Shown here piece by piece: positions 4,607 through 45,063 of a stretch of 45,063 nucleotides of DNA. Origin of the DNA: a virus; the IMG/VR virus record IMGVR_UViG_3300025087_002150; one strand, given 5' to 3'. Below the pieces are notes generated by a model. The model saw only the letters and a list, made by a program, of their open reading frames with translations, did no database searches and was not told the DNA's origin. The first letter of the stretch is position 1. Every line of letters starts with the position of its first letter. The position numbers were made by a program, and so were the translations under genes.

Positions 4607-4812
4607 TTCAACTTAGCCTTTGCCTCCGCCATCTTCTTCTCAAGTTCCTTTATTTCGGTTTGTGCACTTTTCTTTTCTCTGTTAGCTACTATGTATCTAT
4701 TGCAGGCACTCTGAACCAGAGACTGATGATACCTTTTCTCAAGGGAAGTTATCCTCTTCATAATCTCCTTTATCATTCTATTTTCCCTTTCCTTGTCAGT
4801 TAATTTTCTCAT
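4603..4812 (-). CDS. Coiled-coil hypothetical protein
   Basis: Coupled ORF, heptad-like C-terminus. Confidence 0.6.
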   Translation of the reverse strand: MRKLTDKERENRMIKEIMKRITSLEKRYHQSLVQSACNRYIVANREKKSAQTEIKELEKKMAEAKAKLK

Positions 4813-5183
4813 CTTTCTTTACCTCCTTGAAGAATATTTTTAAATAAATCAATAACTTTTGTAAATTTTCCTTGTTTATCTAATACTTCATCTCCCGCCT
4901 CTAAATTTTCAATAGATTTAACTCCCTCTTTAGTAAATATTTTTGTTCCTTCAATCAAACATCGGTCTTTGAAGTATGGGGGAATTAAAGTTCCTTTAAG
5001 AAATCCTTTTTCTCCTATCTTAGTTCTGAAGACTATTGCCCTTTTTCCGCTTCTTTCTATCAGGCTTTCTAAGGTTGTGGTCTTCCCGCTTTCGTGGGCA
5101 AGTCCAGTAACGATTAGATGGGCTGGCGCAATATTAACCTCATCCCCAGTCTTCAATTCATATCCTAACTTTATTTGTTTCAT
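4809..5183 (-). pseudogene. HerA-like P-loop ATPase N-terminus fused to an intein N-terminal fragment (truncated or split)
   Basis: HLIVTGLAHESGKTT Walker A, then CLIEGTKIFTKEGVKSIENLEAGDEVLD (intein block A/N2); stops ~50 aa into the intein. Confidence 0.7.
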
Positions 5184-5816: not shown

Positions 5817-6352
5817 CCTATTTCTTCCCCCCGTAATTCCTGCCCTCTTAATTCGATTTCCAGTTCGATATCCCTCTGCAACGAAGGTCCAATATCAGAA
5901 CTTCTGACTTGCCCCCTCAAAGATTCTAAACTCCTCTCACTTCTAGCTCTACCTACCCTTTCCGAGAATGCTTCTGCCAAGGCTCTCCTTTCCTCCCTTG
6001 TCCCGAATTTCTCCTCTCTAACTTCTCTTATAGCTCTCCTTTCTAAATCAGTTTTCGCTCTCTTTTCAAGTTGGGTAAAATCACTTTCTCGGAAGGTTTT
6101 TTCCTTTATCCTATTTCTAAAGATTATTGCTATTCTTTCTTCGCCTATTTGTCTCTCTGTCTCTCTAATAACTTCCGCTCTCCCTAGAACTTTCGCAACA
6201 GCTCTTCCGTGGGTGGGGGTCTTTTCAAAAGCTCTTACAATCCTCTTTTGCTCCTCGACAATATCTCTTATCGAAGTCGCATTTTCTAGAACAGAATCTA
6301 AATTCATCAATCTTGGATTTAATGTCCAACTAACTAATTTGTCCGTTGCCAT
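5813..6352 (-). CDS. Highly charged helical protein
   Basis: R/E-rich ORF directly downstream of the primase. Confidence 0.65.
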   Translation of the reverse strand: MATDKLVSWTLNPRLMNLDSVLENATSIRDIVEEQKRIVRAFEKTPTHGRAVAKVLGRAEVIRETERQIGEERIAIIFRNRIKEKTFRESDFTQLEKRAKTDLERRAIREVREEKFGTREERRALAEAFSERVGRARSERSLESLRGQVRSSDIGPSLQRDIELEIELRGQELRGEEIG

Positions 6353-7704
6353 TTTTCATAGACTAAACTTTCCTCCCCAATAAGATTCTCTCTTTCCCTC
6401 ACCTGAAAACCAAGCTTCCTCAAAAGGTCAGCGTGAGGGCGAGAATAGATATTATTGTCTTCTCCAGATACGAGGTTTTTTGAGAAAAGAGGCTCCCAGA
6501 CCAGAGCCATCCTAACTCCATCTTTGGTTAGCCAGCCTTCTGTGATTGGAATGCACACTAAATTGTTTTTCTTGAAAGAAAACCTATTTGTAGAATTAGA
6601 ATGTGAATATATCTTATGGAGTCTTCCCTCATCGTGTGCTTTAAGGAATACAACTCCGTACCCATGCCTAGAAAGCATCACATAGGCATTTCCCAAATCA
6701 AACATATTTGAAAGACCAGATATTTCTTCTTCAACTCTTCTCCAGTTGGTTTGCTTTGGATAAGTAAGAAATAGGATGAATCTTTTAGTTGCAGTAATCT
6801 TATTCGTTAGATAAGTAGTTATGGCAGGTTCGCCTAGCCCAGGCGATAATCCTGCCTGCTCTAATGTAGGTGGGCTGGTTTGCCGACCATCATCGCCTCT
6901 GGTTTCTCCCGCAGGAAACCTTCCTCGGCTCAATGGGCTCCCATCAAGGTCTTGATGAGTATGAAGGGAAGCGGATGGACGTTCTTGTGTAGAAGAACTT
7001 TTTGAGGTATGATTTTCCGCTTCCCTATTTGGGCATGTATAAGGCAAGGAATGTTCAGTGCTGCATGCCAACTGATTTGCTCCTTTAGCCTTCTTCAATA
7101 TAAAGTCAGCACTTTTATTTAAATCTTTCGCTTCTAAAAATATAGCTCGATTCCCTGAAGTACCATTTATCGTCAGAGGCAATCTTATAACTCTGAACCT
7201 ATCTTCTGTAATCGGCAGGTCAATAAGTTGAGAAATTTTGCAGTATCTTTTTTCCTCCAAGTATCTCTTTGTTTTTATGGAGTGTTCATACACGATTTCA
7301 AATCCTTTATTACCAGAATAGATTATGTAAGTTGGCTCGCCCAAATCTTGCTTTATTGTGTTTAGAACAAATAATGTCCTCCCTCTTGCTTCATCAAGTT
7401 TCTCTGGAGTTATAGTCTCCCCTTTTTCTAGCTTTGCATCAATGTCAAATATTAAATCTCTGAATAATGAAACGTTCCAGCTACCCGTCTGATTTCCTTT
7501 AACTTGTAGTGGATTAAGCCAGCATGTAACTCCGAACCAGACATGCTTTGGAGAATAAGAAAGTAGAATCTCTCTAAAATCTGTTTTGCTCCTAATTCTC
7601 TTTGGAACATTTATAACTCTTCCATCTTGAAGTTGTAACTTAAACTGCCTCCAACCAGAATGTTTTGGAAGCCATAGCCTTCCTTCTTCATACCCAGAGT
7701 TCAT
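6334..7704 (-). CDS. Archaeo-eukaryotic primase (PriS-like) primase-polymerase with linker and C-terminal domain
   Basis: Motif I LIFDIDA, motif II SGNKGF(E), motif III D..RVIRLPLTIN..SG. Confidence 0.85.
   Translation of the reverse strand: MNSGYEEGRLWLPKHSGWRQFKLQLQDGRVINVPKRIRSKTDFREILLSYSPKHVWFGVTCWLNPLQVKGNQTGSWNVSLFRDLIFDIDAKLEKGETITPEKLDEARGRTLFVLNTIKQDLGEPTYIIYSGNKGFEIVYEHSIKTKRYLEEKRYCKISQLIDLPITEDRFRVIRLPLTINGTSGNRAIFLEAKDLNKSADFILKKAKGANQLACSTEHSLPYTCPNREAENHTSKSSSTQERPSASLHTHQDLDGSPLSRGRFPAGETRGDDGRQTSPPTLEQAGLSPGLGEPAITTYLTNKITATKRFILFLTYPKQTNWRRVEEEISGLSNMFDLGNAYVMLSRHGYGVVFLKAHDEGRLHKIYSHSNSTNRFSFKKNNLVCIPITEGWLTKDGVRMALVWEPLFSKNLVSGEDNNIYSRPHADLLRKLGFQVRERENLIGEESLVYEKWQRTN
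6823..7069. other. Cluster of five stem-loops inside the primase linker
   Basis: Inverted repeats 6823-28/6851-56 plus 6830-35/6841-46; 6901-06/6915-20; 6942-48/6951-57; 6965-75/7016-26 enclosing 6981-86/6993-98; 7032-37/7064-69. Confidence 0.7.
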
Positions 7705-7963
7705 GTTCCTCCCCCGCCATTTTCAATTCACCAGCCTTCTCGGTGTAAGTCGCTTCACCATCACTCGGGATAGTCTTAACAATAGTTAATAAGAGTCTTC
7801 TCTTCTTTTTACTATCAACTCCCCATTTACCATATAACTCTCCCGTGAGCTCTTCTTTCTTAAATCCCACATTCATAAGGTGACGGGAATTTAATGAAAC
7901 CATCCTAGTATTTCCAGGAAATCCCATTTTATTCAATTTAACAAACTCCTTTCTTCCTCCCAT
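7688..7963 (-). CDS. Possible AbrB/SpoVT-like regulator, first gene of the early block
   Basis: VKLNKMG...TRMVSLNSRHL..VGF pattern; sits directly under a TATA promoter. Confidence 0.45.
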   Translation of the reverse strand: MGGRKEFVKLNKMGFPGNTRMVSLNSRHLMNVGFKKEELTGELYGKWGVDSKKKRRLLLTIVKTIPSDGEATYTEKAGELKMAGEEHELWV

Positions 7964-8215
7964 TTTCTATTAAAGAGATGCCAGAAGTATATAAACTTTA
8001 GCATCGGAATAAGAATAACAACAAGAATAAGAATAATCGCTTAGTTATATCGCGAAAGGTTTAAAAAGTCATTAAGCCTATTTTCACCCTCGAGAGTGCA
8101 GTCCTCTGTCATATCCTTTAAGTTAACAGAACCCATGACCCATGACCCATGACCCGAAAGACTTATATAGCCCAACAGCGAATCAAAGACATAATTAAAA
8201 AGCAGCATAATTAAA
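7964..8215. promoter_or_regulatory. Divergent control region with archaeal promoters
   Basis: Minus: AAAG-TTTATATA (7988-7995) 24 nt before ATG 7963. Plus: CGAAAG-AC-TTATATA (8155-8169) and GAAAGGTTTAAAAA. ACCCATG x3 and GAATAA repeats present. Confidence 0.75.
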
Positions 8216-13722: not shown

Positions 13723-13760
13723 GATGGGTTTCTAGAAAACTATTGCGCACTAAGAACCAA

Positions 13761-14834
13761 ATGAAAATTAACCATAAGGGCGCAGCGCAGATGACGACTA
13801 TCCTCGCGATTGCCGCTATCGCTCTTTTGGCTTGGTGGTTTCTAGGACAGAAAGATACTTCTGGAGGCACAGGAGGCACGACTGGCGGAGCAGGCGGAAC
13901 AATCCAAGTTTGCGATGTCACAAAGTCTGTAACAGTTAAGCTCAACTGTGAGGATGCCTTTGCACCAGGAACATCTTGTGGTAGCCAACTTGTATACATA
14001 CAAGATGGGGGAGTATATAAGCAACTAAGGTCGCAGCAATATTCCTCGGGAGATACCTTTTCTGTAGCACCTGGAAGCAAACTAAGAGTATTCTGGGCTG
14101 AAAACAGCACAACTTACTACACAAAGATTGTAGACTACGAAATCCCATGTGCAAGCGACTTTGTAAAGTCAGAGTCAATCGCACCAATGCAGACAGCAGT
14201 TCTAGCATCTACAACTGTTTTCAACAGCAATGGACAGGTTATTACGGGAAGCAATGGAGTAGCCGTTGCAAGCTCTAACAATCAGTCTATAGCAGCTGGA
14301 GAAAATGTGCAGGTAAGAATCAGGTTGAAGCCAACATTCAGAAGATATCTAGGTAATCCCTATGATGTCCCATCTGACGCAAAGGTAGAAGTTGCCGCAG
14401 GGAATACCTTTTCCTGTAGATATAACACTTCTGCCTATGATTCCTTGAACCTTCTAGGAACAGGGGTCAGCGAGACAACCAACCCTGACATCTTGCCAAG
14501 CGGATTGCTAGCGAACAATGTCTGGAAGTCATGGGCAGTTCCTATAGCTGGAACATCTTTGGCAGACAAGAATACAGGAGTACCATCAACTGATGGGCTT
14601 GTGTTTGACTTGGCTATTGACTCAGATGATACAGCAAACCCAGATGGAACTGTAGACTCAGCATGGAATGGCGGAAGAGGAGACATCTTCTGTGTCATTA
14701 ATGACTGGGACTTCGATAGACACGCTGTAACCGACCAGATACTCGCAGGGCCAGAAGATGAAGATAACAACAATCTCGGAGATGGAACCGCACCAGCTGG
14801 AACCTACTGGAACGCAACAGTTCACGTAGAGTAA
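13761..14834 (+). CDS. Candidate major membrane-anchored virion protein
   Basis: MKINHKG|AAQ class III-like leader plus TM, Gly linker, beta-rich body; own promoter; near the ATPase. Confidence 0.55.
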   Translation: MKINHKGAAQMTTILAIAAIALLAWWFLGQKDTSGGTGGTTGGAGGTIQVCDVTKSVTVKLNCEDAFAPGTSCGSQLVYIQDGGVYKQLRSQQYSSGDTFSVAPGSKLRVFWAENSTTYYTKIVDYEIPCASDFVKSESIAPMQTAVLASTTVFNSNGQVITGSNGVAVASSNNQSIAAGENVQVRIRLKPTFRRYLGNPYDVPSDAKVEVAAGNTFSCRYNTSAYDSLNLLGTGVSETTNPDILPSGLLANNVWKSWAVPIAGTSLADKNTGVPSTDGLVFDLAIDSDDTANPDGTVDSAWNGGRGDIFCVINDWDFDRHAVTDQILAGPEDEDNNNLGDGTAPAGTYWNATVHVE

Positions 14835-14852
14835 GCCCGTAACTACAGATGA

Positions 14853-15482
14853 ATGGCAGACGAACGAATAATCCTTGCTTTTTTGATAGCAACGGCATTA
14901 TTCCTTCAGTCGAACTTCAATCCCCTTCTGGGGAGCTTCTATGTAGGGATGGTCTTGGGAGCAGGTCTCCTGTTCTTCACAGACCCCAAGAAGCAGTTCA
15001 GATTCGGAAGGATAAGCGCGGAAACTATCATTGGCGGATTCGTTCTGACAGGGATTTTTCTTCTTTTTTCTTTTATTTTAGGAGCAGTACTTGGGAGTCC
15101 CCAAACCCTTCAGAGCATCCTAGAAGTATTTGCGCAAGCACCAGTCTTGGAGCAAGTGCTTCCGATAAAGATAGCGACATTCGGATTGTTCATTCCAATA
15201 GTGGAAACTTTAGTCATGCTCATATTTTACGAACTGAGCTTAGATTACCTGGGAAGAGAAAAGAAGCTCCTCGCAGGATTCATCATAGCAGCAGGATTCA
15301 TGCTCTTCCATTTGACAGTGAAGGGAGTAGCCGACAACTTTCAGTTGGCGCAAACCTTTGGGTTTGCCGCGCTCTCCGTCTTCGCTTTCGAGAGATGGAA
15401 AGAAGGAAGTCAGGCCGTCATAATGCACATATTTGTGAATTTGCTGGCGATACTGACACTCCTAAATTTATTGAAAATATAA
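14853..15482 (+). CDS. CPBP (Abi/CAAX-like) intramembrane metalloprotease
   Basis: Multi-TM; PIVET (EE-motif variant), FMLFH, HIFVN motifs. Confidence 0.8.
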   Translation: MADERIILAFLIATALFLQSNFNPLLGSFYVGMVLGAGLLFFTDPKKQFRFGRISAETIIGGFVLTGIFLLFSFILGAVLGSPQTLQSILEVFAQAPVLEQVLPIKIATFGLFIPIVETLVMLIFYELSLDYLGREKKLLAGFIIAAGFMLFHLTVKGVADNFQLAQTFGFAALSVFAFERWKEGSQAVIMHIFVNLLAILTLLNLLKI

Positions 15483-15502
15483 AAATATGCGGAGGTTAAA
15501 AA

Positions 15503-15703
15503 ATGGCATACGATTGGAACAAGTCGATAATGCAGGGCGTTATTGGCGGAGCAGCTCTATTGCTTGCACCCTTTGCTATGGGCCTATTCGGCTATAGCTT
15601 GACAATAACCCCACCTGGACTGATACCACTATTCGTGGCAGGATTTCTCCTGAATGTTGTCCTTGAACCATTAGCGACGGCCTTGTTAAGAGGATTCAAA
15701 TAA
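15503..15703 (+). CDS. Small two-TM protein
   Basis: Hydrophobic ORF. Confidence 0.7.
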   Translation: MAYDWNKSIMQGVIGGAALLLAPFAMGLFGYSLTITPPGLIPLFVAGFLLNVVLEPLATALLRGFK

Positions 15704-15716
15704 ACCATTTCACAAA

Positions 15717-17534
15717 ATGGGAGTACCTAAGGCAATACCCTTAATTTTAAGCGTAGCTTTAATTTTGTTAGCTCCAGCAATTATAGAGGGAAAAATGTCA
15801 AGACAAGTAGGAGATTTGATAATTGAAGTCGAAAAGCCTGGCTTCAGCTTCTTCAATACTCAGGCAATCATAGGCCCAACTGAAGCTAAACAAGGTGAAA
15901 GAGTTGCTTATAGGATAACGGGTCATTCAGGTGTTTGGCTTAATGAGCAGGATGTAGTTATCAGAACAGACCAAAATCTTTATACCAGGGCTGTTACGGG
16001 ATTAGAATTAGCAGTAAAGAAGAATGGAAACATAGTTGGTGGATTTAGCATTCCAGTAGGCCAGCTCACCTTGAATGATGGCGGAAGAGGGTTTAGAATT
16101 GATGTGACTATTACTGCACCGAATTCTGTCGGCGATTACAAAATAGATGTGGTTAATGCCTGTTCTGGACAGTTTACCTGCGGACAGAATATTCAGCCCC
16201 TTAAAATAGTCTCTTCACAATGCTCTGACCAGAATAGAGAATCATTCTATAAAGATATTACTGGTGGAGAAGTTTTCAAAGAAGATACATACATAGGAAC
16301 TTCACCTAATTGCAATTATAGGCTTTACATGAGAACCGAATGCGATTCTAATTATCATGTAGAAACATTTGATGATGAATCACAGATTGCAAGAAGATTG
16401 GTTTCTAATGCAGATACTTACTACAAATGTGAGCTTGACTCCCAAGGGGGAGGCGCAGGAGGCTCTGGGGGAGGAGGCTCTTCATCTGGGGGAGGCCAGG
16501 CATGCACAGCAGTAAACAACAATCCACCAGACATTCAAATCACAAATGTTGTTCTTCCAGAAACTGGGAAACTTGGAGAACAATTTAAGGTAGGAGTCAA
16601 TGTAAAAAGAATGAATGAAGATTGGCACTCTTCTGGTGAGGTAAATATGGAAGTCGCAATCTATAGTATTGAAGCTGCACAGAGGCAAGGCTTGATTTCT
16701 GGAGATATGCAATCTATCTTCTTCAAAAATATCAAAACCTCTTGTGCTAATGAGAATTTTGTCCAGGCCAAAAAAGCTTCTTCTGGGATTCTGACAGGTC
16801 CAACAGACCCTACAAGTGCATCGGTAATATTCACCCCTCTCTTTCCATCAAAAGATTCAAAGCTAGCATCGGACGGCTTGAGCAACTATAATGCAGATGG
16901 GAAGTATGTGGTTGTAGCTGGAATATATCAAGAATGCGGGAAAGACTATTTCAATGATGCCTGCTCTAATGAAGAAGGCAAAACATTTATCTTAAAGCGT
17001 ATCACACTCTCGAAAGCGGGGAATGTCCTGATTGAAGGAGAGGGAACTGAAGGAGAAATCGAGACAGAATTATGCAAGAAGGAGAACGAGATATTTTATA
17101 CTAATGGAAATCTTTTTGTAGAAGCGCAGGCCTTTCCACTTTTCAGGGAAGTAGAAAGCGGAGAAATACTTAATCCGAAAGAATTAGATACTAAGATTCC
17201 TGGATTTTCATCCAAATATAAAGAAGGTATCGATGGAGCATGCTGTTCTAGCTTATCTCCTGAATTTCAGGCTTCTAGGACAAATGAGTTTGGTCCAGAT
17301 ATATTCTTCTTAGTAGGAAAAAGATTCACTAGAGTATCATATGACTCATATATCTGTAAGCCAAAATCAGAGGCAGGATTGTGCATTGCATCATTCCACA
17401 AGACACTTAAAGATACGACTAAAGGAAATTGTACAACGAATACAGCAATTGGAGGGATTGGAATACTTTTAGGATTATTCATCTTTCTTAAAATATTTGG
17501 TGGATATTATATAAGAAGGAGGGTTGAAATCTAA
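15717..17534 (+). CDS. Large secreted Cys-rich Ig-like surface/spike protein with C-terminal TM
   Basis: Signal peptide, beta-sandwich-like segments, Gly linker, C-terminal TM plus RRR. Confidence 0.75.
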   Translation: MGVPKAIPLILSVALILLAPAIIEGKMSRQVGDLIIEVEKPGFSFFNTQAIIGPTEAKQGERVAYRITGHSGVWLNEQDVVIRTDQNLYTRAVTGLELAVKKNGNIVGGFSIPVGQLTLNDGGRGFRIDVTITAPNSVGDYKIDVVNACSGQFTCGQNIQPLKIVSSQCSDQNRESFYKDITGGEVFKEDTYIGTSPNCNYRLYMRTECDSNYHVETFDDESQIARRLVSNADTYYKCELDSQGGGAGGSGGGGSSSGGGQACTAVNNNPPDIQITNVVLPETGKLGEQFKVGVNVKRMNEDWHSSGEVNMEVAIYSIEAAQRQGLISGDMQSIFFKNIKTSCANENFVQAKKASSGILTGPTDPTSASVIFTPLFPSKDSKLASDGLSNYNADGKYVVVAGIYQECGKDYFNDACSNEEGKTFILKRITLSKAGNVLIEGEGTEGEIETELCKKENEIFYTNGNLFVEAQAFPLFREVESGEILNPKELDTKIPGFSSKYKEGIDGACCSSLSPEFQASRTNEFGPDIFFLVGKRFTRVSYDSYICKPKSEAGLCIASFHKTLKDTTKGNCTTNTAIGGIGILLGLFIFLKIFGGYYIRRRVEI

Positions 17535-35905: not shown

Positions 35906-37276
35906 TTAAATTATGCCTTCCCCCCCCTCTCTTTTAAATTCTTCTATCTTACTCAAGTCAACAAAATTCTCCGCAATTTTCACTACTTCATTTTCAAGAA
36001 CGCAAGAATTTAGAATCTTATATCTTTTTTCGTAACTAAATCCTCTTAGATTTCTACTATTGGAATAAATCTCATCAAATAATACTATTTTTGAAGGAAG
36101 CATATTTCTTAATTCCTCAAAACCGCTTTCCGAATGGACACGGCTCTGAATTTTATTAAAATCCCCATCCCTTGAGATTATTTCTCCTATAAAAATTGCA
36201 TCATTCGGGACTATACTTCTAATGATAGATTCAACTATCTCTGGGAATTTCCTTGTTATATCTCTCATTTCTCTATTATATAGTCTAACCTGCCTTCCTG
36301 TAAGCCTTACACAACATAAAATGCCATCATACTTTTGCTGGAATATCCATCTTCCATTTTCTATTAGATTATCTGTTTTATTGCACAGCATAAAGCCTAT
36401 TCTCTGAACATTTAATCTGTGGGAAATCTCGCTATCCTCAATACCAATCTTCTCTTTAAATTCTTTTGAATACGGATGGTCAGCATTTATAATTTCTCTA
36501 TCTATAATGTTCTTACTTTCTATTGTAGTCAGGTATTCTTTAATTCTATCGTCTTTTCTTTTAATAGTTAATATGTTACCGAACAAGAAATACAGCTTTA
36601 AGGCATTTCTATTATAAGTCCTTATAGAAGTAACTCCTTTATTATCATTAGCCTCGTAGAAAACTATTTTAAAATCGGTCAAGATTTTGCGAAGGAGTGA
36701 TAGAACTTTTCTATCTTTATTTGATAAACTAAGACCTAATATGCTCCTATCTCTGTCGTAAGTTACACACCCCTCGCTATCAAACATTCCTCTTAAAAAC
36801 TCAATTCCTTGCATATCATTTGTTAAGTCTAATCCATTAATCTTATCTATAAAAAACTCAACAACCTTCTTTCTACTACACGAATATTTGTATAAATCCT
36901 TCCCCCCAAAAGCGTTTTTGCTCTGGCTTATCCTCCTTATCTTTTCATCTATCTCCACGATACTTTCAAACTCCCTCTTAAATTTCTCTACAAACTCGTA
37001 ATCAGTAGCCATCAAGGCAACTTTATTGATTAATCCATTTTGATGTATAGTTCCATCTCCCATTAAAGTACCAATAACATAAAACAACGATTTTTCATCT
37101 AGTGGATATTTAAAGTGCGTTATCTTCAAATTTTTTAGACCTATTCTTTCCCTCACTTCTTTATTGAATTTACTTATCTTTCCTCTACTCATCAATTCGT
37201 TATACTTCTCAGTAGCGTTTTCTTTCTCTTTCTTACCCTGCATAAATAACCTTCTCTGCATCTGAAATTTTCCCAT
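35906..37276 (-). CDS. LAGLIDADG homing endonuclease fused to an ATP-dependent DNA ligase adenylation domain
   Basis: VIGTLMGDG and FLRGMFDSEG motifs; then QKYDG, LYNRE..DIT.KFPEI, IGEII, VLFDEI, EGII*. Confidence 0.85.
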   Translation of the reverse strand: MGKFQMQRRLFMQGKKEKENATEKYNELMSRGKISKFNKEVRERIGLKNLKITHFKYPLDEKSLFYVIGTLMGDGTIHQNGLINKVALMATDYEFVEKFKREFESIVEIDEKIRRISQSKNAFGGKDLYKYSCSRKKVVEFFIDKINGLDLTNDMQGIEFLRGMFDSEGCVTYDRDRSILGLSLSNKDRKVLSLLRKILTDFKIVFYEANDNKGVTSIRTYNRNALKLYFLFGNILTIKRKDDRIKEYLTTIESKNIIDREIINADHPYSKEFKEKIGIEDSEISHRLNVQRIGFMLCNKTDNLIENGRWIFQQKYDGILCCVRLTGRQVRLYNREMRDITRKFPEIVESIIRSIVPNDAIFIGEIISRDGDFNKIQSRVHSESGFEELRNMLPSKIVLFDEIYSNSRNLRGFSYEKRYKILNSCVLENEVVKIAENFVDLSKIEEFKREGGEGII

Positions 37277-39190: not shown

Positions 39191-39437
39191 CCTTCCTCTC
39201 CTCAAGCTCTCGCTTCCTCCCACTCTTCCTCTGATTCTGGCTACCAAGACCAAGAGCAACACCAAAAACAACAGCAACAAGAGCACCAACACCAACGCCA
39301 AAAACAAGAGCAACATCAACGTCAACGCCAATAGCAACACCAACGCCAAAAACAAGAGCACCAGAAATAACAAGAGCACCAAGAGCACCAAGACCAAGAG
39401 CACCACTTTCCGTCTCAAGTTCTTTTATCATTTTCAT
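39171..39437 (-). CDS. Gly/Val/Ala-rich low-complexity membrane protein
   Basis: MKMIKELETE start coupled to the upstream stop; reading frame ambiguous. Confidence 0.45.
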   Translation of the reverse strand: MKMIKELETESGALGLGALGALVISGALVFGVGVAIGVDVDVALVFGVGVGALVAVVFGVALGLGSQNQRKSGRKRELEERKDENRQM

Positions 39438-41767: not shown

Positions 41768-41981
41768 TATAGATAAGACTTTCTCTCAAGCTCTCTATCC
41801 TCTCATTCTTCTCGTTAAGCTCCTCAACCAGCAAGTCAGAAATCAATCTGTGCAGGTCGGTAGGCAACTTAGCATACTGAAATCCCGCAATAAAATCTAA
41901 AATCTCCCTTCTTTCAGCTTCCAAGTCAGCTCTCGCTACTTCTAAAATTTTCTTATTGTCTTGCATTTTCTCATACCTCAA
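41703..41981 (-). CDS. Coiled-coil hypothetical protein
   Basis: Track ORF; SD GAGGT upstream. Confidence 0.55.
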   Translation of the reverse strand: MRYEKMQDNKKILEVARADLEAERREILDFIAGFQYAKLPTDLHRLISDLLVEELNEKNERIESLRESLIYIDEREFNGMLVQAEAGEVAFD

Positions 41982-42108
41982 AAATGTTTTATATTAAAGA
42001 TTATGAACTATTTAAATCTTTTCTTTTCAACAGATTCTATCTCCCCGCCTTTGTCTTACTTCCCATTTCCCATATCCTGCGTGAAATAATTTCGCCTTCG
42101 CCATTTTT

Positions 42109-44960: not shown

Positions 44961-45063
44961 TTTCTCATACCTCAAAAATGTTTTATTTTCTGTTCTGCTT
45001 AACGCATTACTTCTTTTCACGCATTACTCCTTTATATATCTTTCTATACCAACTCTCACATTC

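Follow-up and report, generated by a model that had tools for sequence, protein, structure and literature searches.

The virus record IMGVR_UViG_3300025087_002150 of IMG/VR is a stretch of 45,063 nucleotides (nt), referred to here in its whole length as the window. A preliminary description of this DNA had drawn attention to positions 6823-7069, as a GC-rich element of several hairpins embedded in frame in the linker of a primase gene. The gene is a minus-strand open reading frame (ORF) of 456 amino acids (aa), and the stretch lies in frame within it and encodes residues 213-290 of its product, P0001. The GC content of the stretch is 51-52%, compared with 39% for the window and 37% for the remaining gene, in agreement with the description on both counts. 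The features of the locus are collected in Table 1.

P0001 was identified as a PriS-like archaeo-eukaryotic primase (AEP), in keeping with the earlier view of the gene as a primase. A profile built from 42 homologues of P0001 matched archaeal PriS chains at an E value of 1e-20. The AlphaFold2 model of the protein has a mean predicted local distance difference test score (pLDDT) of 82 and two confident domains (aa 1-211 and 291-456), and its best Foldseek structures were PriS of Sulfolobus and Pyrococcus (1zt2, 5of3 and 1g71; E 4e-9). The DxD signature on this AEP fold is provided by an FDIDA motif, whose D87 and D89 are invariant in the 42 homologues; S421 and H424 of the C-terminal domain are likewise invariant among homologues. 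When P0001 alone was compared with Pfam PF01896 (DNA_primase_S) it reached 12.8 bits, below the gathering cut-off of 26.8, and the relatives P0008 and the protein of locus L082 scored above that cut-off. A PHROGs search with the primase gave no match. As all four searched genomes with the family gene also carry a second, separate PF01896 match (the stronger one in three of the four), we take the P0001 family to be a PriS paralogue and the separate match to be the canonical PriS.

Between the two domains, pLDDT falls below 50 over aa 213-290. Because this segment separates two confident domains, the model shows 6823-7069 to be coding sequence (CDS) of an expanded, predictedly disordered linker that joins the catalytic and C-terminal domains of the primase. 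The earlier view of a low-complexity linker between two domains, with its frame kept open, is borne out by the predicted structure. Pro, Gly, Ser, Thr, Ala and Arg make up 0.58 of linker residues versus 0.33 outside the linker, and the codons of these residues account for its GC richness. A linker is present in all homologues; it measures 30-69 aa with a median of 47 (56 homologues) and about 90 aa in P0001. Its length and sequence vary across the 42-56 homologues compared, and its GC content exceeds that of the remaining gene in 41 of 56.

In relatives of the gene, selection on the linker acts at the nucleotide level. Among 33 Bathyarchaeia-type genes the linker DNA is near-invariant in blocks, at all three codon positions, and synonymous-codon entropy is 0.46-0.50 in the linker as against about 1.0-1.4 elsewhere. 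The catalytic motifs of these 33 genes keep a synonymous entropy of about 1.3-1.4 despite their far lower amino-acid entropy. The linker DNA of these relatives doubles as a structured, pseudoknotted RNA of the mRNA strand that is translated in frame. This family motif, of about 130-150 nt, consists of a pseudoknot and the hairpins P2 (loop of 3-17 nt), P3 (UUC loop) and P4 (loop GAUUGGGAGUAA). Its carriers are loci L003-L054, L082-L092 and others, which encode PriS-like paralogues of Bathyarchaeia and other archaea.

Covariation across these loci was strong. On a plain MAFFT alignment, 85.6% of the cells of the three hairpins pair, compared with 25-50% in slid controls, and the covariation score of the hairpins was 0.286 versus 0.115 in shuffles, a value reached by none of 500. 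The covariance model matched 57 loci, including members of Methanobacteriota, Micrarchaeota and Bilamarchaeaceae; in the 51 distinct matches, 87.2% of cells pair and double changes occur at 20 of 24 pairs. The pseudoknot lies outside the model and joins a 5' strand CUCCCA with UGGGAG in the P4 loop. It is paired in 98.8% of cells, with double changes at all six pairs, and one of its pairs holds 18 G-U cells, which indicates the sense (mRNA) strand.

The peptide read from the motif is not constant. The AUGA block stands in codon phase 3 in 30 sequences and in phase 1 in 11, and the block after it in phase 1 in 24 and in phase 3 in 16; the peptide over the conserved blocks varies with the phase, as REMT, GDD or EDD. 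At two loci the motif lies 16-17 nt past the stop codon of a full-length primase-like gene and has no open frame (L079:1709-1838, 26 bits; L056:3220-3346, 20 bits). The RNA is therefore a module separable from the linker, and most members of the family house it in frame there. No Rfam family matched the motif at the nine related loci compared. A literature search on coding-region pseudoknots, archaea and covariation returned nothing that mentions primase and nothing on this motif.

Four members of the family stood out for other properties. L044:2688-2839 and L039:2670-2816 belong to AT-rich members on contigs of 34-46 kb; in each the linker is GC-rich and its hairpins are very strong (z -5.0 in L044), and their pseudoknot strands are changed to G[AG]CCUG / CAGGUC. 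At L053:2520-2665 and L052:2598-2745 the motif occurs without a long open frame across it (L053 has no such frame, and that of L052 spans 996 nt and involves a phase shift), and these two genes may be pseudogenes or the products of sequencing errors.

The corresponding linker of the window was compared with that of L001, the locus encoding P0004. With 45% aa identity, L001 was the only close relative compared at the DNA level, and the nucleotide comparison within the subclade of the window comprised these two sequences, leaving out P0005-P0007 and P0027-P0029. Scans of viral contigs yielded no further relatives with DNA, GenBank phages gave no match, and metagenome and genome scans returned just relatives at 34% aa identity or less. 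Near-identical copies of the window were without variation.

When window and L001 were folded together, RNAalifold placed hairpins at the same sites unaided, and 10 of 26 pairs were changed on both sides. In mRNA order the two sequences share P1 (7 bp), a 6-nt Ser-Pro strand, a 13-nt spacer, P2, a block, P3, about 20 nt and P4. On an alignment made from sequence only, the pairs of P1, the pseudoknot and P4 hold in both window and L001 at 19 of 19 positions, with six double changes, compared with 21-42% paired and no double change in slid controls. The P1 of L001 is a 7-bp hairpin in the same columns as that of the window, with five compensatory changes, and the peptides encoded at P1 are unrelated between the two. 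Under synonymous recoding with the peptide held fixed, the L001 hairpin had P = 0.0009.

The remaining parts of the architecture also recur in L001. The complementarity for a proposed pseudoknot between an x-Pro strand and the P4 loop is present in the window, where AGCCCA (6934-6939) matches UGGGCU (6836-6841) at six of six positions. The strands in L001 are AGUCCA / UGGACU and differ from these by one compensatory change, which involves two synonymous sites; when the peptides were held fixed, recoding with synonymous codons yielded P = 0.047 for the full pseudoknot in the window and 0.063 in L001. P2 of L001 (CUCUU / AAGAG) occupies the same codons as P2 of the window, and, as we read the codon alignment, both partners are changed in three of its pairs. 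The sequence of P3 is common to both, and the GAUGAU block of the window, which on inspection resembles the GAUGA block of the family, is UAUGAU in L001. P4 has an identical stem and an equal loop length of 22 nt in L001, with the pseudoknot strand at an equal offset. In our estimation, the presence of a diverged member of the family RNA class in the window is close to an even chance, if just short of one.

Table 1. Coordinates of the primase gene, its domains and the hairpins of its linker, with examples of the family motif in relatives.
Feature	Position	Strand	Basis or remark
PriS-like archaeo-eukaryotic primase paralogue P0001, 456 aa	6334..7704	-	ORF, profile, Foldseek, invariant D87/D89
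N-terminal catalytic AEP domain, aa 1-211	7072..7704	-	AlphaFold2 pLDDT mostly >90; PriS match here
Predicted disordered interdomain linker CDS, aa 212-290	6835..7071	-	pLDDT <50 for aa 213-290 (6835-7068)
C-terminal mixed alpha/beta domain, aa 291-456	6337..6834	-	confident AlphaFold2 model; conserved in all homologues
Hairpin A, interrupted stem	7031..7069		folding; no counterpart in L001; read as lineage-specific
Hairpin B, 11-bp perfect stem 6965-6975 / 7016-7026	6965..7026		folding and repeat search; read as lineage-specific
6-bp hairpin within hairpin B	6981-6986 / 6993-6998		
P1, 7+2+7 palindrome CATCAAG-GT-CTTGATG, 6942-6948 / 6951-6957	6942..6957	-	directly 5' (mRNA) of pseudoknot 5' strand
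Proposed pseudoknot, 5' strand AGCCCA (mRNA; Ser-Pro codons)	6934..6939	-	6/6 complementary to 6836-6841
P2 hairpin GGUUUC / GAAACC (mRNA), 6901-6906 / 6915-6920	6901..6920	-	folding
GAUGAU block 6889-6894, then weak 3-bp hairpin P3 (GGU / ACC) 6877-6888	6877..6894	-	
P4, 6-bp stem GGCAGG / CCUGCC, 22-nt loop	6823..6856	-	folding; two-tier hairpin
Proposed pseudoknot, 3' strand UGGGCU in P4 loop	6836-6841	-	
Inner P4 hairpin (alternative pairing)	6830-6835 / 6841-6846	-	
Alternative long-range helix 6841-6850 / 6889-6898	6841..6898	-	10 bp on mRNA including one G-U
Family motif, examples	L010:2598-2744, L041:996-1133, L023:2598-2728, L088:2855-2982		

All the stems named in the preliminary description, including the 7+2+7 palindrome, the 11-bp stem and the interrupted stem, are present in the sequence. 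The two on which it laid most stress, hairpin A and the 11-bp stem, are absent from L001, and the positions of hairpin B align to a gap in P0004/L001; we read them as a lineage-specific expansion of the linker. The covariation that the description had proposed to look for across homologues was strong in the distant relatives. The alternative pairing of 6841-47 with 6892-98 also exists and extends to 6841-6850 / 6889-6898, with 90% complementarity on the plus strand. No complementary partner was seen in L001 by inspection, and this helix was therefore not counted as conserved. Within hairpin B lies one of three copies of the 14-mer CTTTTTGAGGTATG, which combines a Shine-Dalgarno-like GAGGT with ATG; the others are at 41971-41984 and 44965-44978 on the minus strand. 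The linker copy (6999-7012, plus strand) is antisense to the primase gene, opens just a 39-codon frame and is probably a chance match.

Folding of the linker exceeds chance expectation only moderately. Relative to dinucleotide shuffles, 6823-7069 had z-scores of -2.98 (mRNA strand) and -2.29 (plus strand), and the whole linker (6817-7089) one of -3.61. Against synonymous-codon and whole-codon permutations the mRNA strand reached z -3.35, and one permutation in 250 was as good. On an unselected grid, nine of 182 intervals of the same genome (5%) had z <= -2.98, and regression on GC left a residual of -1.4 standard deviations (sd) for the mRNA strand and -2.1 sd for the plus strand. A stronger outlier was the mRNA-5' half of the linker (6958-7072, z -5.24); the near-identical 6961-7075 had z -4.53 and ranked third of 605 among 115-nt intervals of the genome. 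Fold z-scores are poor discriminators here, as the demonstrably conserved family RNA scores just -2.16 and -0.65. The most structured coding stretch of the window is 13750-15810 on the plus strand, with z -4.65 at 13833-14079 and -5.8 at 14327-14441.

Several results weigh against membership of the window in the family RNA class. The covariance models R1-R3 matched neither the window linker nor the L001 linker, with filters off and E up to 10. P4 loop GAUUGGGAGUAA, the most conserved part of the motif, is absent from the window, and comparison with the family alignment showed the UUC loop of P3 to be absent as well. The fold z-scores of the window are unexceptional for this genome, and the whole linker of L001 folds at z -1.35. 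The shared architecture rests on two sequences and was partly derived by eye from those same two, towards which the 19-pair counts lean. Conserved Ser-Pro and Gly-Leu codons by themselves dictate four of the six pseudoknot pairs. Finally, codon identity between window and L001 is 11 of 18 at conserved residues of the 3' half versus 0.47-0.49 in the domains, a difference that is not significant. The in-frame cis-acting or template RNA put forward in the preliminary description is upheld for the family, whose relatives carry a covarying pseudoknotted RNA in the linker; in the window itself the models fail and the architecture depends on a single relative.

The chief alternative is an ordinary disordered linker. 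On that explanation the codons supply both the GC richness and the self-complementarity (CCN with GGN, GCN with NGC), the family RNA was lost if it was ancestral, the similarities to L001 are peptide homology plus chance, and the most hairpin-rich spot of a 45-kb window had simply been chosen for attention. The predicted disorder of the region and its residue composition fit this account, as do the proportion of genome intervals that fold equally well and the small GC-corrected residual of the mRNA strand. Perfect inverted repeats of at least 11 bp with arms at most 80 nt apart number four in the whole window, and neither the missing model matches, nor the absence of excess synonymous conservation against L001, nor that of the 11-bp stem and hairpin A from L001 would be surprising. 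However, the mRNA strand outperforms all but one of its 250 permutations, and P1, the pseudoknot and P4 hold in window and L001 in the same columns with six compensatory changes. At P1, moreover, unrelated peptides are encoded by what is a 7-bp hairpin in both sequences, and the relatives demonstrably use their linker as RNA. We judge an ordinary linker to be a serious contender whose probability lies somewhat below one half.

A replication signal acting as DNA, either a lambda-like intragenic origin or a single-stranded DNA (ssDNA) initiation hairpin for the primase of the element, appears improbable. The stems of the window are nearly all Watson-Crick and would form in DNA just as well, a primase is what the gene encodes and a mobile element is what carries it, and the family motif can sit within or just past the gene, as origins do. 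The sporadic distribution of the gene family, with the motif in one of 101 genomes of the class searched, also suits a signal of this kind. However, the linker has no iterons or direct repeats, and in place of an AT-rich unwinding element it forms the GC-rich part of the gene; both the switch in strand skew and the tandem repeats are located at 7964-8215, and the G-U pairs and pseudoknot of the relatives favour a sense-strand RNA.

The origin of phage lambda is a double-stranded DNA element, composed of iterons and an AT-rich region, in the linker-coding part of gene O. The primase linker would resemble it in that a replication-initiation protein hosts a cis element within the reading frame of its flexible linker, with a peptide that is tolerated and not selected. 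Unlike the lambda origin it is GC-rich and without iterons, and in relatives it shows a covarying pseudoknotted fold with sense-strand G-U pairs. A lambda-type origin was rejected for the linker because repeat searches found no iteron array, only chance two-copy direct repeats of 8-14 nt, and GC content within the gene peaks in this region. The cumulative GC-skew minimum, which the preliminary description had suggested consulting for its proposed internal origin, was at about 8.0-8.2 kb, where transcription diverges; the switch there (about 7964-8215) leaves that proposal without support. GC skew in the window is explained by gene orientation. The ssiA and ssiB sites of RSF1010, used with RepB', are ssDNA hairpin initiation signals of a plasmid AEP-like primase. 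They may be similar in that a hairpin signal is specific to a dedicated two-domain primase with a long linker, and differ in lying outside the gene as ssDNA hairpins without a pseudoknot.

The divergent intergenic region 7964-8215 adjoins the primase operon and contains (GAATAA)x5 at 8007-8036 and (ACCCATG)x3.6 at 8131-8155. It is a better candidate than the linker for promoters and/or an origin.

An in-frame insert, be it intron-like, a decayed intein or a miniature palindromic mobile element, is very improbable: the linker does exceed the family median by about 45 aa, its extra part bears perfect inverted repeats and the window contains further remnants of selfish elements (a Hint fragment and a LAGLIDADG domain), but blastn-short of 6780-7100 against the window found just chance words of at most 14 nt and no second copy of any part, Pfam gave no intein or Hint match in P0001, part of the extra length is common to P0004, Rfam gave no match to group I, group II or archaeal bulge-helix-bulge introns (6000-8200, E up to 1), the reading frame is uninterrupted, homologues can be aligned with the peptide, and DNA contigs from four groundwater or soil runs are identical over the region, with no indels or joints and no form without it. 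The archaeal intron-like insert considered at the outset is dismissed on these grounds, and the remark that no group I or II consensus could be seen agrees with the Rfam scan. Palindromic elements of Rickettsia offer a parallel as palindromic DNA tolerated in frame within a protein; they are multi-copy mobile repeats, unlike the single-copy primase-linker sequence, which occupies a homologous site across the family.

Under the favoured reading, that of a diverged family RNA in the window, the family member would be the mRNA-3' half of the linker (about 6823-6957), which would keep P1, the Ser-Pro/P4-loop pseudoknot, P2 and P3. The mRNA-5' half (6958-7069), with the 11-bp stem and hairpin A, would be a lineage-specific expansion of which the perfect inverted repeats are probably by-products. 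Our best guess for its function, and the weakest step of this scheme, is a cis-acting fold on the primase mRNA that may be bound by the encoded enzyme or by a partner; the bound RNA might regulate expression or be part of an RNA-protein complex. The linker peptide would then need just an open frame and flexibility. The small ORFs that precede the primase gene share no homology between the window, L001 and L082 and thus offer no conserved partner, and Pfam gave no match for the flanking small ORFs.

Two groups of coding-region or messenger RNA structures are the nearest parallels at the RNA level. The cis-acting replication elements (cre) and other coding-region RNAs of RNA viruses are likewise conserved hairpins embedded in an ORF, recognised by suppressed synonymous variation and covariation. 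Cre differs in belonging to RNA genomes and in templating VPg uridylylation, whereas the present motif is an archaeal DNA element with a primase gene and also occurs outside the ORF. The autogenous translational operators of T4 genes 43 and 32 are comparable in that a replication protein could bind its own structured mRNA. Those operators are located at the ribosome-binding site, whereas the family RNA is mid-gene or past the stop codon and its binding is putative.

We tentatively propose, with less than even confidence, that primase-like genes of archaea and mobile elements contain a structured, pseudoknotted RNA that is translated as the interdomain linker and in some follows the stop codon, that the cluster of the window has a diverged and enlarged version of it, and that the RNA acts in cis with its enzyme. 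If this is true, a cis RNA would serve as a binding site, primer or template of the enzyme or as an expression switch, and the main role of a protein linker would be to accommodate an RNA. Structured coding-region RNAs are well known in RNA viruses and rare in genes of cells or DNA elements. As the same module is apparently translated as a linker or placed past the stop, with its blocks read in different frames, a disordered linker can be the vehicle for a nucleic-acid element. The association of this RNA with an AEP primase paralogue points to an RNA partner for that class of enzyme. For annotation, GC-rich, low-complexity linkers in AT-rich genomes merit a check for synonymous constraint. 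In this particular window, a disordered linker by itself accounts for most of the signal, and class membership needs more sequences.

The 45-kb window has the appearance of an archaeal virus or mobile element, and was found unchanged in groundwater and soil metagenomes. Its proteins include TrmB-like and HNH proteins, a Hint fragment, a LAGLIDADG-ligase fusion, and CBM96 and NosD-like surface proteins. The fusion is encoded by the minus-strand ORF 35906-37276, in which LAGLIDADG_3 (E 1e-11) is combined with an ATP-dependent DNA ligase adenylation domain (E 1e-17). The last part of ORF 4809-5183 (minus strand, 124 aa) corresponds to the beginning of a Hint/intein domain (Hint_2, E 6e-6, aa 75-113). 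Tandem repeats occur in minus-strand ORFs at 1863-2038 (51-nt unit, 3.4 copies, 96% matches), 4-119 (24-nt unit, 4.5 copies) and 39243-39405 (24- and 48-nt units).

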